Position numbers and translations under genes: made by a program
Part shown: one piece after another, positions 6,472 to 31,392 of the stretch
Numbering within the stretch: position 1 is the stretch's first letter
Layout: each line of letters begins with the position of its first letter
Source of the DNA: a virus
Virus genome (UHGV): UHGV-0104313
Strand: one strand, 5' to 3'
DNA length: 64,000 bases
Notes under the pieces: generated by a model
Told to the model about the DNA's origin: nothing
Seen by the model: the letters and a program-made list of their open reading frames with translations, nothing else
Database searches by the model: none

Positions 6472-9459
6472 ATGAGCTTAAGCGATCAGGTGGTAATGGC
6501 CACCAGCATAGAAACGCTGATCGAGCTGCTAAAGAACCTGCCCGATTATGGGCGGGTTTCGTATGTGGTGACAGCGAAGGGAGACGAGGTAAAAACAGCG
6601 TTTGATATCGTCGATGCCTCAGCTCTTTTGATATCCAATACTCTGGATGGGAAAATTAATCCTGACTATCCCCAGGAACTTCAGCCGCGCGACCGGACCC
6701 GCGCATCCAGCCTTCTTCAGGTTAACCAGATATCCAAAGATTTGCGGCCTGCTCAGCTTACCGATTCCGGTTTATCCAGCCATGGCGCGCCGATAATTGG
6801 TGAGGACAATGCCGTTGAGTCAGGTAATGGACGGACTATGGGGATCATCAAAGCCTATCAGGACGGCAATGCGGATCGGTATCGTGAGTACCTGATTGAA
6901 CATGCGACCGAATTCGGCATACCTCCTGAAAAGGTTGAATCAATGACGGCTCCGGTACTGGTGCGCCGCCGGTTAACTAAGGTTGACCGCGTTCAGTTTG
7001 CCAAGGACTCAAATATTTCTGATCTTCAGGAAATGGCAGCCAGTGAAAAGGCTTTTGTTGATGCCGACAGCATAACACCGGCGATGATGGCGCTGTTTAA
7101 TCCGTCAGAAAGCGGAGATCTGCTTAGCCGCAGTAATGACGCGTTTATTCGCGGATTCATGACGCAAGTTGGTGCCACACAGGCGGCTGGCCTTGTAACT
7201 GAAGATGGGCGACCAACACGGCAACTTGTAGACCGTATACAAAACGCGATCTTTGCCAAGGCATATAAGGATGCGCGCCTGGTAAGGATGGTTGCAGAAG
7301 AACCTGATCCGGATATGCGTAATGTTCTGACGGCGCTTAATGCGGCAGCCAATGATTTTGTCCAGATGCAGGCTTTATCAGGAGAAGCGCACAAGCAGGC
7401 TGTGACAACTATTGTTGATGGCATTGAGACAGCGGATAGCCTCGATAAAAAGGCGCTGGCGGCATTGAAAGATGCGGTAGACCTGGTAAGGCAATCGAAG
7501 GAGTCAGGCCAGCATATTACCGATGTTATTGCTCAGGGGGATATGTTCAGCGAAACGGCCCCGGAAGTGAAAGCACTCGCGTTGTTCATCGTCGCGAATA
7601 ACCGTAGCGCGAAGCGTATGGCCACCGCCTTTAAGTTGATGGCTCAACGTATCAATGATGAGTTACAGCACCAGGGCCAGGCGCTGGGGGATATGTTTGG
7701 CGGCGGCGATGTGTCGTTACAGGATATCCTTCGCCAGGTGTCTCAGGAACTGGAAAACGAAGGCATGCAAGGGATATCCGGCGGTCTTTTCGAGTCCGTT
7801 TCCGGCGGTAGTTACAACGGTGTTGCTCCGTATACCAGTTTGCTATTACATCGGGCATCCGGCATCAAAGACATTATTCATCTGATCAGGCTGCTTTCCC
7901 GCACAGATCCCCAGGATGAACAGCTTGTACAAGTGCTTGCGCATTTTGTTCGAATGCCTGTTGCCGACGTGAAAAAATGGTGCCGATTATTCGGTATCAG
8001 CAATTCGTTACTTCGCGGCTTGTTAAATCACGCATCCTCCCTTGGGCGCGATGGCTTTGACGAGATAGCGCAGGCGATAAAAAACGGAGATATGCCACCA
8101 GCTATTGACTGGTTTTCCATTCGCCCAACCAGGGTGAAAGCATTCCTTAGCGCGGCGCATTCGGCATCACCATTGGCAGAAATGGTTCAGAGGTTGTCGC
8201 TCATATTCACAGACCATACCGCGTTGGGTGATCTGACTCTGGACGAGATGAAAGAAGCCTCCATTCAGTGGGCCGATCAACAAAATGAGGTTAACTCAGA
8301 CTTCTTGCCAGCATTCAGGAAGGCCGTTAGTAAAGCGGATGATGCCCGTGGAATTCTGAAGGCATTTAAGGCATTGCAAAGTCGTGTTAATAAACATGTC
8401 GGTGATATCGATGGGGTAACGGCGGAAGGCCGGGATATCCTTAAAGAGCACGGCATAACGCCAGAGTTTATTGATGAGATCAGGACTGATATGCAGCGTG
8501 AGGTCGTATCGTCCCTGCAAATCGTAGCCAGAGCGTTGGCGGATGCTAATCCGAAGAGTGCGGCCATTGTTAACCGGGTTATTGGTGATATTGAAGCATC
8601 GGAGGGCATGGGGGCGCTGAAACTCTTCCTGTCGCGAGCGTTTAATCCTAACGGCAATATTCTCCCTGGCATTATTGGTGAGGCTAAAAAGTATGTCAGT
8701 GAAGAAGAACTTGAGCAGCTTGACCAACTACTTAAGCGATTCTCATATAACCCGCAGACACGCTGGCAAATGAATCAGCGAAGTATGGGTTCGGTCCACG
8801 AGAAAGTGTTATCTGCCATGAACAGTGCGATCGCAAACTCATCCGTATCTGAAGAAAAAGCTCTTGAGTGGGCCGACTCTTTTATCACGGAAGAAGTGGA
8901 AGAAGCCCGCGCTGGACAGAATGGTGGGATAGACCTGCGCAAGGAACTTGCTGATATTTATCGCCTGACCGGCGGGAAAATATCGACCTTATCAAAAGTG
9001 GTTCACCACCAGGGAAGGGCATATGCAAATCTAAATGGTGTTGTTGCTGTCAATTTGAACGATGAAAATGCAAGTGCACTGTGGCACGAGCTGGGTCATC
9101 ATCTTGAGTACAGTAACCCTGGTTTGTTAGAGAAAGCCCGGTCATTCCTGAAGGCCAATGTTGAAGGGGATAAGCCATCTTTCGTCAATATCGGTGGGCG
9201 TGGCAAGCCTGAATGGTGCTTCAGATCTCGATTGAGTAATATTTATATGGCGAAGGTATACCCGCCAGCCTCAGTAAGTAACACCGGGAAAATTCGGCAG
9301 AAATCACCGACTATTTCCAAAACGTCAGCAACGGAAGTATTCTCTATGGCTCTTCAGTTGTATCATGACAAAGAGGCCGCTGCCGCATCACTGATGAATG
9401 GTGACGGATTGCTGGAACTGTTATTAGGTGTGGCAAAGGAGCTAAATAATGCAGATTAA
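6472..9459 (+). CDS. ddrB: DdrB-like protein (Dar system component)
   Basis: 995-aa ORF downstream of ddrA-like gene; synteny and size only. Confidence 0.5.
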   Translation: MSLSDQVVMATSIETLIELLKNLPDYGRVSYVVTAKGDEVKTAFDIVDASALLISNTLDGKINPDYPQELQPRDRTRASSLLQVNQISKDLRPAQLTDSGLSSHGAPIIGEDNAVESGNGRTMGIIKAYQDGNADRYREYLIEHATEFGIPPEKVESMTAPVLVRRRLTKVDRVQFAKDSNISDLQEMAASEKAFVDADSITPAMMALFNPSESGDLLSRSNDAFIRGFMTQVGATQAAGLVTEDGRPTRQLVDRIQNAIFAKAYKDARLVRMVAEEPDPDMRNVLTALNAAANDFVQMQALSGEAHKQAVTTIVDGIETADSLDKKALAALKDAVDLVRQSKESGQHITDVIAQGDMFSETAPEVKALALFIVANNRSAKRMATAFKLMAQRINDELQHQGQALGDMFGGGDVSLQDILRQVSQELENEGMQGISGGLFESVSGGSYNGVAPYTSLLLHRASGIKDIIHLIRLLSRTDPQDEQLVQVLAHFVRMPVADVKKWCRLFGISNSLLRGLLNHASSLGRDGFDEIAQAIKNGDMPPAIDWFSIRPTRVKAFLSAAHSASPLAEMVQRLSLIFTDHTALGDLTLDEMKEASIQWADQQNEVNSDFLPAFRKAVSKADDARGILKAFKALQSRVNKHVGDIDGVTAEGRDILKEHGITPEFIDEIRTDMQREVVSSLQIVARALADANPKSAAIVNRVIGDIEASEGMGALKLFLSRAFNPNGNILPGIIGEAKKYVSEEELEQLDQLLKRFSYNPQTRWQMNQRSMGSVHEKVLSAMNSAIANSSVSEEKALEWADSFITEEVEEARAGQNGGIDLRKELADIYRLTGGKISTLSKVVHHQGRAYANLNGVVAVNLNDENASALWHELGHHLEYSNPGLLEKARSFLKANVEGDKPSFVNIGGRGKPEWCFRSRLSNIYMAKVYPPASVSNTGKIRQKSPTISKTSATEVFSMALQLYHDKEAAAASLMNGDGLLELLLGVAKELNNAD

Positions 9460-9757
9460 AATCGCAGCGCCATTAGGCGGAGATGCCATTATCGAATTTG
9501 ATGATAATGAAGAAGTTTCCGGGCGTTTAAGCATTATCTCCGGTGACATTACCGAGGACATGATCGCTGAAGCCATAGCTGGGGCAAATCCCAATAGCTA
9601 TATGGGATTCGTTAACACCCTTGATGCTCCCGCAAGTGATGTTCTCCGAACGCTGCATCTTTACGCTGGCTGGTTTGTTGATTGGCCAGCAGTAGATGGT
9701 GGCGATGAGGACGACGACGATGATTTTGGTGATCATGTAGACCAGATCGTATATTGA
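9449..9757 (+). CDS. small acidic protein, last gene of darA-type operon
   Basis: 102 aa with poly-Asp/Glu C-terminus; overlaps ddrB stop by 11 nt. Confidence 0.35.
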   Translation: MQIKIAAPLGGDAIIEFDDNEEVSGRLSIISGDITEDMIAEAIAGANPNSYMGFVNTLDAPASDVLRTLHLYAGWFVDWPAVDGGDEDDDDDFGDHVDQIVY

Positions 9758-9786
9758 AGAAATCCCGCCAATCGGCGGGATTTTTA
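9758..9786. terminator. rho-independent terminator hairpin between convergent operons
   Basis: aaatcccgcc-aatc-ggcgggattt followed by TT; between + strand darA operon and - strand ssb operon. Confidence 0.55.
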
Positions 9787-9788
9787 CC

Positions 9789-10883
9789 TCACGAGAAGCT
9801 TTTTTCTGATGTCAGCCAACAGTGCTCGTGCAAATCTCTTGGTGGTTTTTCGACAAATGCCTCTTCAGCCACATCCTGCCAGGGGATTTGTTTAGCCCAT
9901 TCAGCTATAGCGTTATGGTTTGCCGAGAATAACGGTATTGTATAGGCCTTCAGCCAGTCTAATGTGCTGGAGTTGTGTTTTTGAGCGTGATGTTTCGCAT
10001 GGTGTTTGGCGATCACGATCGTAGGCACTACCCATTTACTACCGTCAGTCATTGTGAAGTGCATATTACGGGGAACAGATGACTTTTCCATCAACTCCCG
10101 AATCCCGGGAAATTTCCCCAAGATCAATCGGCGATATTCATCGCTATTGCGCCCACCAAACTCTTTGGCTTTGAATTCAAGATATGCTTCAGAAACGAGA
10201 GGTGAATCCTCTGTGTTTAGAGTTATCGCCGTGAAAAAACCAGCAGGATTGTTTTTACTATGGGCCAACCGGTGATGCGAATCATAAAAGTACCCTTTCT
10301 CGCGTTCCGATGGTTTCGACAGCAACAGCAGGCGCGAGTCATAATTGGTTAAATTGCCAGTTATCACTGCATGAGCGCGATCGCTGATTTCCGCCGAGTT
10401 AATAACGATGAAAAGATCGTGCGGTCCAGTAAAACCAGCCAGAGACTCTTCGTTATTCAGACAATAGGTTATATAGACGCATCCCCATGTTTCACTGATA
10501 TGCACCAACCCTTTGTCAGGGTGTATTCTGAAATAATTGCCAAGAAAAGGGTGTTTTTGGGTAACTCGCTCCCAATAACGGAACATATAGTCAATTATTG
10601 TTTTTCGACTATCGTTAATCGCAGGAGAAACAACCACTGTACGGGAACACGAATACAGTATTGTTTGCAGGATGCTAATCACTGCCACAATAGAGGTTTC
10701 CCCAATACCATGTGGTGTGGTGGCAGTGACTTTGGCTCCGGTGTTCTTTATCGCGTTAATAATTTTTGCTTGATGAGGTGTTAACTCAATATCAAGCAAC
10801 TCTTTTGCTGCCAGTTCCCAATTGTCTTTATACCGTTCTATCAGTGCTAACCAGGCAGATTCATTCTGTATACGATTAATCAC
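9789..10883 (-). CDS. terminase-large-subunit (PacB)-like paralogue with degenerate ATPase motifs
   Basis: 364 aa; alignable by eye to the PacB ORF at 29908-31392 (e.g. ITGNLTNYDSRLLLLSKPSEREKGYFYDSHHRLA vs [33 protein letters not shown]); Walker A GHGTGKS replaced by PHGIGET, Walker B IIDEASG by VINSAEIS; no nuclease domain. Confidence 0.6.
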   Translation of the reverse strand: MINRIQNESAWLALIERYKDNWELAAKELLDIELTPHQAKIINAIKNTGAKVTATTPHGIGETSIVAVISILQTILYSCSRTVVVSPAINDSRKTIIDYMFRYWERVTQKHPFLGNYFRIHPDKGLVHISETWGCVYITYCLNNEESLAGFTGPHDLFIVINSAEISDRAHAVITGNLTNYDSRLLLLSKPSEREKGYFYDSHHRLAHSKNNPAGFFTAITLNTEDSPLVSEAYLEFKAKEFGGRNSDEYRRLILGKFPGIRELMEKSSVPRNMHFTMTDGSKWVVPTIVIAKHHAKHHAQKHNSSTLDWLKAYTIPLFSANHNAIAEWAKQIPWQDVAEEAFVEKPPRDLHEHCWLTSEKSFS

Positions 10884-11784
10884 TTTCCACCTCTTCCGTG
10901 GTGTTTTCTTGCAGTTCTGTTAATGCAGCACGACATAGGTTCCGGGCATTGGCTATAGCCACACTTTTGACTTCATCCGTCATCGTGCAGGTAATGTACT
11001 GATCGAGTTCTTCAGCGCGGATGATGCTTTTGCCAATCAGAAACTGTATTTGCCATAGCAGATCGGCATCCATAATCAGAATTTCTGCCGGGCCTTCAGG
11101 GCCAGCCGGGAAGGAAACATAAGACTGTTTGCCCAGGCCGACAACTCGACAACTTGCTTCAAGAATTGCGCGCTTGAGGTCTGACTTTATAACGGAAACA
11201 GGTTGATTTTCACCAGTGATTACGCCGTTGACATGGAAAGGCATGTAGCTTGAAATACGCTCCACTTTCCACACGCCAGCAAGCGATCCTTCATGCAGCA
11301 CAATGGGGGTAACCGCGAGTTTCATCTCACCATATAACTGCTGGCAGATAGCTGGATTGCTGAATACATCTAAAGGCTCACATTCAAACAGCGGCGCAAT
11401 CTGCATGAGGTCCATCATGGTCATCCCTGGGGTACGAGCAGTAATGAATTTGCGCATACCAGTATCCATTGCGCTCCAGATTGCTACACCATGCTTTTTG
11501 CTCACTTCTTCAGTAAAGCCAAGGTGGCACATGATGGTTTTTTCGATAGCCAGATCGGAGATAGAAACCTTTTCGCCAGGTACACCATCATTATTGATGG
11601 TCACTTCGACACTCTGGCCATTACGCAGGCGGTATTGAATTGTTTTAGTATTTTGTGCTGCCATAGTCTTTTCTCTGCTTAAAAACTGATGTATTGCGCC
11701 TTCAGGTGGGTCAGGAATGTTTTCCCACCAGCGAAAGCAATATCTCGGGGTGTTCTGTTCGTTAAAAACGCGTTCCATTGCCAA
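10876..11784 (-). CDS. hypothetical protein (ssb operon)
   Basis: 302-aa ORF between ssb and the terminase-like paralogue; true start may be the internal Met (MAAQNTKT). Confidence 0.4.
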   Translation of the reverse strand: MAMERVFNEQNTPRYCFRWWENIPDPPEGAIHQFLSREKTMAAQNTKTIQYRLRNGQSVEVTINNDGVPGEKVSISDLAIEKTIMCHLGFTEEVSKKHGVAIWSAMDTGMRKFITARTPGMTMMDLMQIAPLFECEPLDVFSNPAICQQLYGEMKLAVTPIVLHEGSLAGVWKVERISSYMPFHVNGVITGENQPVSVIKSDLKRAILEASCRVVGLGKQSYVSFPAGPEGPAEILIMDADLLWQIQFLIGKSIIRAEELDQYITCTMTDEVKSVAIANARNLCRAALTELQENTTEEVESD

Positions 11785-11866
11785 CTTTGGCGTTTTTTAG
11801 CGAGTTCGTGCTTTTGTTGGCGTTTGGACCACCGCTTTTCTTTCAGTCGTTTTTTACTCATAAACT

Positions 11867-12355
11867 CTAAAACGGAATATCGTCTTCAAAGTCCATTGGA
11901 GGTTCGTTATTGGCGCTGCTCTGAGGTTTGCCACCACCGCTGTATTGCTGGTGGTTTTGAGGTTGGTTTGACTGCCCCCAGCCATTTGAGGACTGTGAAT
12001 CGTCGCGGCGAGCGCCGATCATTTGCATGGTGCCGCCCTGGCTGACGATAATTTCCGTCGTGTAACGTTCTACACCGGCGTCATCTGTCCACTTACGGGT
12101 TTTAAGTTTCCCTTCGATGTAGACCTGAGAACCTTTTCGTAAATACTCACTCGCAATTTCAGCAAGTTTTCCGAACAAAACGACTTTATGCCATTCTGTT
12201 TGCTCTTTCTGTTGGCCCGTTTGCTTGTCGCGCCATGATTCATTCGTTGCGATGCTGAGTCTTCCGACCGCGCCGCCATTTGGTATATACCTGATCTCCG
12301 GGTCTTGCCCCAGGGTACCAATCAGGATGACTTTGTTTACACCGCGTTGTGCCAC
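11867..12355 (-). CDS. ssb: single-stranded DNA-binding protein
   Basis: 162 aa; OB-fold region, Gly/Gln-rich linker and C-terminal DFEDDIPF tail typical of bacterial SSB. Confidence 0.92.
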
Positions 12356-12374: not shown

Positions 12375-12391
12375 AAATTAATTAGAGCAAT
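12375..12391. promoter_or_regulatory. C1 repressor operator
   Basis: aaattaattagagcaat = 16/17 to reverse complement of ATTGCTCTAATAAATTT; just upstream of ssb. Confidence 0.55.
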
Positions 12392-29907: not shown

Positions 29908-31392
29908 TTATTCATTAAGCCATGCCAGAGCTTCATCAACCTGCGCTTCGTCTTCGACGCTAAGCACTTCATCCTGGGGAACATAATCAGCCAGCATAGC
30001 GAAACAATATGTATCCCAATGGTCTGGTGAGTGCAGGTTGAGTTTTTTCTTCATATCCTCCTTACTCATCACCTTCCATTGACCTGCGGAGTTAATCCCT
30101 ACAGGGATTTTCGACGCTTCCTCAATAGTTTCATTACCCTTATCCAGTCTCATACGACCAGATTTTACGGCCTCTGCGGCTTGAACGTTGGCATAAGCAC
30201 GTTTATCAAAGTACAGGCTCTTATCTTCACGGCTATGCATCTTTTTACCCCAGCGTATACGCTGTACGGTAATACCATAATACTCGTACATCAGATCCGC
30301 CGTTGCTTTACCCAGGCCATCGCCGTCTATCGCTATGGTGATATTTGGGAATCGCTCAGGATTACATTCTGCGAAAATTTTGGCGGCAAGCTGCGTTTCT
30401 GTAACGTCTGTGTATTCCAGCATTCGATAGTTGATTACACGGCGTTTATTTCGCTGGCCGGACACCATCATGATATTGATAACGGACTTATCCCGTCCCG
30501 TACCACCAGCAACGTCCACACATGCAAGCCAGCCCCATCCTTTTGCAATCTTGACTTTCCGCCGCGTTGCACGTTCAACCTCATCACGTCCAAGAAGGAA
30601 GCCATCCTGTGATTTAGGGAATAGGCCGCGTACCTTAATCATGTACATAGGGTTATCACGCCCGCCGTACTCCGCCAGCTTCATTTTGATAAATGCTGGC
30701 GTTACCAACGGTGATTCCTCACTGTTAAGCGTGATCGCCGTATAAACGCCATCAGGGTTACCAGGACGCTTGGCCAGTTTATGGTGTGTATCGTAGAAAT
30801 AGCCGCTTGGGCGTGTAGGCTGTGACAGCAATAAGATGCGGTTATCCTGTCCGGTAAGAGCACCGGTGATGATACCGAAAGCTCTATCACTGACACCGGA
30901 GGCTTCATCGATAATATACAGAAGATGATCTGCGTGTTCACCGGCGAGAGCTTCTTCACTTCCCAGACGAAAGCCCTTCGGTACTACAGTCCATACACCT
31001 TTACCAGTAATCTCATAGAAAGCGGTTTCTGTCAGAACAAAATAATCAGCAAGCCATGGGAAACGGCTGGTGGCAGTAGCCCAGTTTATCTTGATGTACT
31101 TGAATATACCGGTCATTACCTGCTGAATTTTGTTCGCAACGATAATGGCACGGGCACCTGGATACATGATTATGAACAACATGATCATGATAGAAGTCAT
31201 GTCTGATTTCCCGGTACCGTGACCAGACGAAACAGATGTCTTGCTACCCTGTTCCTGCACAGACTCAATAATCAGATCCTGCTGCCAGGTAGGTGTTTTG
31301 CCGAACAAAACATCAGCGGCCGCAATCCAGTCATAACGATATAGCGCCACCAGCTCGCGCCAACGTGGATCCGTTACGCAACTTCTGGCCAT
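29908..31392 (-). CDS. pacB: terminase large subunit PacB
   Basis: 494 aa; Walker [10 protein letters not shown], Walker [11 protein letters not shown]; C-terminal nuclease-like region; downstream of pacA. Confidence 0.85.

Follow-up and report, generated by a model that had tools for sequence, protein, structure and literature searches.

The 64,000-nucleotide stretch of virus genome UHGV-0104313 analyzed here (the window) is a P1-like phage-plasmid (Punavirus), 96 to 99.9% identical to P1-type records, that encodes DdrB, Hxr, Ssb, Lyz, Pro, PacA, and PacB. Its open reading frame (ORF) at 9789-10883 on the minus strand codes for a 364-residue protein, for which we use the working name PT. PT is not a terminase, since four of the five defining features of large terminase subunits (TerLs) that were tested are absent from it. 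It is most aptly described as a pseudo-enzyme derived from TerL that has undergone a domain swap, conceptually like protein vs.8 of phage T4. We place high confidence in the anatomy and descent described below and consider PT very probably non-catalytic. On balance, we favor the view that PT is a functional, non-enzymatic, accessory descendant of terminase, perhaps related to conflict. The features of the gene and of its product, all on the minus strand, are as follows.

9789..10883: PT gene, GTG start, stop codon at 9789-9791, 364 residues; very probably dead TerL paralogue (ORF list and BLASTP to PacB)
10101..10883: N-terminal domain, residues 1 to 261; TerL ATPase fold, with an AlphaFold2 pLDDT mostly above 90
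10692..10721: degenerate Walker A motif (P-loop), residues 55 to 64, TTPHGIGETS (alignment with TerLs)
10386..10418: degenerate Walker B motif and catalytic Glu position, residues 156 to 166, DLFIVINSAEI (alignment with TerLs)
9792..10100: C-terminal domain, residues 262 to 364, in place of the nuclease domain; belongs to a family of small, acidic proteins from early phage regions
9972..10022: His/Lys-rich helix, residues 288 to 304, TIVIAKHHAKHHAQKHN; aligns to the family consensus IAxxRAxxYA

The N-terminal domain has a terminase ATPase fold but not its catalytic residues

The original prediction, made by reading the DNA, was that of an ATPase-dead pseudo-terminase resembling PacB (29908-31392, minus strand) across the ATPase domain. 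The ORF exists as claimed, with a GTG start, and BLASTP established the homology (95/266 identities, 36%, E = 6e-55, residues 11 to 272). No similarity to PacB was found by BLASTP beyond residue 272, the alignment stopping at the boundary between the ATPase and nuclease domains. PT also matched PHROG 5902 and PHROG 2. Its AlphaFold2 model, computed from a 119-sequence alignment, had a mean pLDDT of 89.7 and a pTM of 0.86, and the top matches of this model in the PDB, as revealed by Foldseek, were the terminase ATPase domains of Sf6 gp2, P74-26, HK97, D6E, and T4 gp17 (E = 2e-9 to 1e-6).

Catalytic positions were scored in an alignment of PT with 115 genuine TerL homologues. The Walker A motif reads GHGTGKS in PacB versus PHGIGET in PT and the Walker B motif IIDEAS versus IVINSA. 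The Walker A Lys, present in 114 of the 115 TerLs, is replaced by Glu in PT, as had been predicted, and the first Gly of the P-loop (113/115) by Pro. The Walker B Asp (Asp in 110 TerLs and Glu in 5) is replaced by Ile, the catalytic Glu (115/115) by Asn, and the near-invariant Arg138 (112/115) by Ile. PT retains the Gln of the Q-motif, the H-G-x-G core of the P-loop, and the distal-domain motifs GxFYDSHH, SPLV, and GxFP. Sequencing errors were excluded, because 15 independent P1-type copies carry identical residues at these positions and the divergent lineages are all degenerate; neither such errors nor chance similarity can account for the finding.

No RNase H-like nuclease domain was detected at the C terminus of PT. 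The possibility that a remnant of this domain persists in another frame or downstream was rejected, since PT and hxr are a mere 31 nucleotides apart and comparison of PT to the window by tblastn retrieved only PT itself and pacB. TerL homology and fold, loss of the canonical catalytic residues, and replacement of the nuclease domain together bear out the description of PT as an ATPase-dead pseudo-terminase.

The C-terminal domain belongs to a family of small early phage proteins

The nuclease half had been predicted to be replaced by an unrelated His/Lys-rich C terminus. The replacement stands, residues 262 to 364 showing no similarity to the nuclease domain of PacB, but the segment is a member of a conserved domain family rather than a mere His/Lys-rich tail. 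A phmmer search of 1.84 billion representatives with this domain retrieved 151 clusters at E <= 1e-3, nearly all of them stand-alone proteins of ~100 residues; a single other cluster had the fused architecture (366 residues). The domain matched the C-terminal part of PHROG 17928 (E = 9e-15) and gp35 of Cronobacter phage JK004 (35% identity, E = 3e-17), and the family consensus is MPDGSxWxVP..IA..RA..YA ... PLF ... DWA.NNM.W.DV. Since the His/Lys-rich helix of PT aligns to the IAxxRAxxYA portion of this consensus, the His residues are lineage-specific replacements, not a family motif. The domain and its free-standing relatives have the same predicted fold, a β-hairpin followed by helices, for which no Pfam family, solved structural relative, or fold match was found. 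The free-standing members are uniformly acidic (103 homologues aligned; median pI of 4.3, all below 5.5; median net charge of -12), whereas the domain of P1- and D6-type PTs is neutral and His-rich (pI 7.3).

In lambdoid prophages, free-standing members are located a few genes past O and DnaB, ahead of the nin genes. Others lie near ERF and SSB in one phage or among small unknown ORFs. The gene next downstream of DnaB/Ban encodes a free-standing domain of ~98 residues both in Cronobacter phage JK004 (locus L006, 4010-4306) and in Salmonella plasmid NZ_CP146848 (locus L008, 3989-4285). In Xanthomonas phages, the domain terminates a 471-residue coiled-coil protein whose gene adjoins recombinase, exonuclease, and SSB genes. 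The family is one of widespread, uncharacterized early-phage proteins. Two further candidate members were rejected: an apparent second copy in the window, at 51.1 kb, was a chance match within a tail gene, and P1 Dbn, encoded downstream of ban, showed no homology to the domain.

PT lineages probably share one origin and are maintained by selection

PT copies fall into four lineages, in which the Walker A motif reads PHGIGET, PHGIGRP, PTGIGHK, or GEGVGTK and the Walker B motif IVINSA, IIVDSA, IVMDAA, or IVLNAS. The Walker A Lys position is occupied by R, H, Q, or T in lineages other than that of the window, and Pro takes the place of the first P-loop Gly in all but one of the four lineages, the ban-linked L036 form having Gly. 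This third lineage (L036, 4974-6062, IMGVR_UViG_2773857937_000001; 362 residues, 37% identical, GEGVGTK, IVLNAS) immediately follows a DnaB/Ban helicase gene, is not preceded by IsaA, and carries an acidic C-terminal domain. The PacB of the same element is 90% identical to that of the window, whereas its PT is only 38% identical and located at a different locus.

All 27 PT copies examined are intact ORFs of 362 to 366 residues, in lineages diverging down to 37% identity. Ratios of nonsynonymous to synonymous substitutions (dN/dS) were calculated pairwise among PT copies by the Nei-Gojobori method, and most pairs gave values between 0.1 and 0.3. They amounted to 0.15 to 0.31 for P1-type copies, 0.08 to 0.13 for D6-A pairs with at least ~25 differences, and 0.24 to 0.54 for D6-B copies; near-identical D6-A pairs (about 10 differences) gave noisier values of up to 0.42. 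The C-terminal domain is constrained equally to or more than the N-terminal domain. As judged from these substitution patterns, PT is maintained by purifying selection.

In a neighbor-joining tree of ATPase domains, the N-terminal domains of PTs were monophyletic (98/100 bootstraps), although with that method long-branch attraction may contribute to the grouping. The PT clade, which has longer branches, was placed as the sister group of all PacB-type terminases from P1/D6-like elements (96/100). All PT lineages have a hydrophobic residue in place of the Walker B Asp, Asn or Asp in place of the catalytic Glu, and the same fusion point (G-x-F-P/S-G-I). Because these features are common to all lineages, which form one clade, a single ancient duplication followed by inactivation and fusion would be the simplest history. 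The two D6-type sub-lineages (L004, NZ_CP029365, and L005, NZ_CP056699) have nearly identical C-terminal domains and far more diverged N-terminal domains, a pattern that suggests recombination within the PT gene of D6-like plasmids.

PT is the last gene of the ssb operon and follows isaA

PT had been predicted to be co-oriented with ssb and a 302-residue ORF behind a C1 operator. The arrangement proved correct, PT being the last gene of the co-oriented block ssb-isaA-PT, but the intervening ORF is P1 isaA, which probably encodes 262 rather than 302 residues. The remaining features of this region are as follows.

11867..12355, minus strand: ssb, first gene of the operon (Pfam SSB, E = 7e-40)
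12375..12391, minus strand: C1 operator, ATTGCTCTAATTAATTT, one mismatch to the 17-mer consensus, upstream of ssb; equivalent of P1 Ossb/Op21
10876..11664, minus strand: isaA, 262 residues from the conserved ATG; the mechanically called ORF reaches a TTG at 11784
10876..10897, minus strand: overlap of the isaA stop and PT start, GTGATTAA, with a Shine-Dalgarno GAGG 6 nucleotides upstream of the GTG (read from the sequence)
9760..9783, no strand assigned: GC-rich hairpin between the convergent PT and hxr genes (RNA fold of -20.7 kcal/mol, z = -4.6)

The reference P1 annotation places Ossb/Op21 at the position homologous to the 12375-12391 operator. Searching the window for the 17-bp C1 operator consensus with at most two mismatches gave 8 sites versus 0.02 expected by chance. 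The matches start at 12375, 28374, 28457, 43488, 49253, 59301, 59312, and 62834, two of them forming an overlapping inverted pair at 59301-59328.

The overlapping stop and start codons and the GAGG motif indicate that isaA and PT are likely to be translationally coupled, and annotation shows the same overlap in D6-like plasmids. At the other end, hxr is convergent with PT and separated from it by 31 nucleotides. The hairpin at 9760-9783 is probably a bidirectional terminator marking the end of the operon, although it was not flagged by a simple terminator scan. PT thus sits in the ssb-isaA operon, flanked on one side by the dar antirestriction operon (hxr-ddrB), and not in the packaging/head module, the real pacA-pacB pair being 19 kb away. 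DdrB (6472-9459, plus strand; 995 residues) has an N-terminal ddrB-type domain of the ParB superfamily (PF18763, E = 2e-39).

IsaA of the window is 95% identical to P1 IsaA and 46 to 48% identical to D6-type IsaA. An IsaA homologue is encoded directly upstream of PT in all 22 P1- and D6-type IMG/VR loci for which upstream sequence was available, and IsaA occurs without PT in P1, D6, SJ46, and Ro157c2. The original prediction had overlooked this constant upstream partner, as well as the independent and widespread phage domain at the C terminus of PT. The mechanically called IsaA ORFs (302 residues in the window and 320 in P1) owe their 5′ extensions to the ssb-isaA spacer. These extensions are probably untranslated, because the D6-type homologues begin only at the conserved ENTK motif, and the ATG at 11664 is probably the start codon. 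The spacer itself (11665-11866, ~200 nucleotides) holds an ORF for a very basic 60-residue peptide (11679-11861, minus strand). In SJ46 and in loci L013 and L015, this slot carries a Tad2-like gene (PF11195, E = 1e-22), which was found between ssb and isaA in 2 of the 22 PT-bearing IMG/VR loci.

The candidate explanation that IsaA is a diverged PacA, which would make isaA-PT a duplicated terminase operon, was rejected, since neither BLASTP nor hhalign revealed any similarity. IsaA did not match any PDB sequence. No Pfam, NCBIfam, or PADLOC match was obtained for PT, its C-terminal domain, IsaA, or IsaB, and a search with a fused profile of IsaA and the C-terminal domain retrieved relatives of the latter only. 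Both isaA and isaB of P1 were found to be non-essential by CRISPRi (PMC10695390).

PT is an optional cassette

Whether reference P1 has this gene had been left as a question by the original prediction. It does not: window positions 9756-10859 are replaced in P1 by isaB and IS1. The two sequences part precisely at the stop codons of hxr and isaA, and P1 has no detectable remnant of PT that would have pointed to a loss through IS1. The slot corresponds to the published variable region RD-2, isaA-IS1-isaB (PMC6906374, PMC9603915). PT is exchanged there as a cassette at gene boundaries. IsaB of P1 (locus L001, 2070-2675; 201 residues, PHROG 30162) ends in a CxxC motif and is unrelated to PT (BLASTP E = 0.084, no DNA similarity).

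PT is carried by about a quarter of P1-like phage-plasmids. It is missing from P1, P7, D6, SJ46, and Ro157c2, as well as from some three in four P1-type elements. It was found in 3 phage records and, in PLSDB, in about 120 plasmids for the P1-type form (at least 90% identity) and about 44 D6-like plasmids for an orthologue of 49 to 53% identity. In complete E. coli genomes, PT was present in 100 of 5,426 (101 places, all full length) and pacB in 599. PT is labeled “terminase large subunit” in GenBank records MH422554.1 (locus L002, 1990-3084) and MH445380.1 and “hypothetical protein” in RefSeq plasmids. No description of a dead terminase paralogue in P1-like elements was found in the searchable literature.

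What PT may do

The following scenario would fit these data. Duplication of a P1/D6-type large-terminase gene would have given rise to PT, a functional and non-enzymatic descendant that kept the fold of the ATPase domain. PT would no longer have the Lys of Walker A, the Asp of Walker B, the catalytic Glu, or the conserved Arg, and its nuclease domain would have been swapped for a domain of ~100 residues otherwise found as a free-standing early phage protein. As an optional cassette, the gene would now close the C1-repressed ssb operon, its translation coupled to that of isaA. Because of the C1 operator upstream of ssb, PT is expected to be made early after induction or infection and not in the lysogen. 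Because PT would have no canonical ATPase cycle and no nuclease and is nonetheless kept by selection, we infer that it acts by binding.

We tentatively suggest that PT has an accessory role in conflict between phage and host (or between phages), for example as a terminase look-alike or an adaptor that engages a factor recognizing the TerL ATPase fold; that it belongs to, or regulates, the packaging motor of P1 itself is less likely. PT is located in a hyper-variable early operon adjoining the dar antirestriction operon, Tad2-like genes (PF11195, E = 1e-22) are inserted in the PT-bearing operon of some elements, and the relatives of its C-terminal domain are small acidic proteins from early phage regions. 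Accessory proteins resembling the TerL ATPase, namely, T4 vs.8 and Ksap1/2, trigger Avs2, and the authors of that study suspect an anti-defense role (PMC13601566). A more specific proposal, which we regard as quite improbable, is that PT is an early-made counter-defense mimic of terminase that shows the surface of the TerL ATPase fold to sensors such as Avs1-3, Upx, or similar systems. Having neither an ATP site nor a nuclease, PT would occupy or divert the sensor without delivering an activating signal, thereby protecting the late-made PacB. If so, the loss of both Walker motifs would be an adaptation rather than decay, and the fused C-terminal domain, perhaps with IsaA, would supply an inhibitory or tethering function.

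Several observations weigh against the favored scenario as a whole. PT, IsaA, and the C-terminal domain match no PADLOC, Pfam, or NCBIfam model, so PT belongs to no curated defense or anti-defense family in PADLOC or Pfam; the Tad2-like protein is the product of a neighboring gene only, in some elements. The idea of DNA mimicry is not transferable to P1- and D6-type PTs, because their C-terminal domain no longer shows the acidity of the free-standing relatives (pI 7.3 versus 4.3). Avs2 and Avs3 contact the ATP bound by terminase or its active site (PMC13601566), and PT may not engage them because the P-loop Lys is gone. With the Q-motif Gln and the P-loop H-G-x-G retained, PT may also bind nucleotides without hydrolysis. 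Finally, a location beside ssb or ban could be equally compatible with DNA metabolism.

Regulation of packaging by PT, an activity offered in the original prediction next to interference with other phages, appears unlikely. PT would in this case keep the surface by which PacB binds PacA or oligomerizes and would bind PacA, PacB, or pac DNA, either tuning or delaying the cleavage of pac at an early lytic stage or poisoning the terminase of a related co-infecting phage. The closest relatives of PT are PacB-type terminases, an N-terminal helix, W..L...Y..(D/N)W..AA..L, is common to PT and PacB and is not in the wider TerL consensus, and C1-controlled early expression would place PT in the cell before the late PacA and PacB. 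However, PT has a patchy, cassette-like distribution and is dispensable in P1, P7, and D6. It does not co-vary with the terminase, elements with 90%-identical PacBs having PTs of only 38% identity at different loci. The optional nature of the gene, its swapping as a cassette, and this mismatch make it less plausible that PT is closely partnered with the terminase of P1 itself. In well-studied phages, the nuclease domain is the part of TerL that contacts the portal, and PT does not have it. The 36 to 43% identity between PT and PacB also makes co-assembly doubtful. A function in replication or recombination is rather unlikely: the C-terminal domain would dock on a protein of the replisome or one that handles ssDNA, such as SSB, Ban/DnaB, or a recombinase, and the dead ATPase would serve as a DNA-binding or scaffold module. 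Gene neighborhoods speak for it, PT being in the ssb operon, the third PT lineage and the free-standing domains of JK004 and the Salmonella plasmid lying directly downstream of a DnaB/Ban gene, the 471-residue Xanthomonas phage protein adjoining recombinase, exonuclease, and SSB genes, and the domain of lambdoid prophages following O and DnaB by a few genes. Elsewhere, however, the domain is found among unrelated small ORFs or glycosyltransferases, and the link may reflect placement in early regions only. Neither a signature of DNA binding or helicase loading nor a matching fold was found.

It is very improbable that PT is an NTPase using a non-canonical active site. Gln38 of the Q-motif and His58-Gly59-x-Gly61 of the P-loop are invariant among PTs, and two lineages have a Lys one residue past the canonical site (GIGHK and GVGTK) and an Asp at the position of the catalytic Glu. 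Conversely, in the PT of the window the Lys has given way to Glu and the catalytic Glu to Asn, the lineages do not agree on any one replacement residue, Pro stands for the first P-loop Gly in three of the four, and Arg138 is lost. Hardly credible is the view of PT as a functionless decaying pseudogene or annotation artifact. The absence of catalytic residues, branches longer than those of PacB, and a dN/dS of about 0.5 for one D6-B pair would be expected from decay, but the 27 intact ORFs out of 27, the dN/dS values well below 1, the conserved coupling to isaA, the good ribosome-binding site, and the confident, compact AlphaFold2 model would not.

Relation to known systems and significance

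PT resembles PacB of P1 by homology across the whole ATPase domain, by its fold, and by a start codon overlapping the stop of the upstream gene, as for pacB after pacA. Unlike PacB, it has no Walker A Lys, Walker B Asp, catalytic Glu, Arg138, or nuclease domain, and its gene is optional rather than universal and located in the early ssb operon rather than beside pacA. Similar to T4 vs.8 and the structurally terminase-like Ksap1/Ksap2, PT is an extra phage-encoded terminase ATPase fold devoid of a nuclease domain and confined to one phage group. PT differs from vs.8 by its added C-terminal domain and by the loss of both Walker motifs, which vs.8 is reported to keep (PMC13601566). The two proteins have no sequence similarity (BLASTP E = 0.023 over 25 residues; hhalign probability of 0.2%) and would therefore originate from independent duplications. 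Residues 262 to 364 are homologous to the free-standing acidic proteins (PHROG 17928, C-terminal part), from which PT differs by fusion to a TerL-like domain. Finally, RD-2 of reference P1 is the same slot between ssb/isaA and hxr, isaA being common to both, but P1 carries IsaB and IS1 there instead of PT.

Among the protein patterns by which bacterial immune sensors detect tailed phages, terminase is the best established, and additional proteins resembling it, T4 vs.8 among them, have only just been noticed. PT would be a second, independently evolved example, one that was inactivated long ago, is under selection, and is fused to an uncharacterized early-phage domain. The “terminase large subunit” label in GenBank is wrong and could mislead terminase-based phage typing. 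PT is located in an accessory hot spot of a clinically common group of phage-plasmids, and the related P1-type elements with and without PT constitute a natural experiment. It also ties two uncharacterized families, the acidic domain of ~100 residues and IsaA, to a testable partner.

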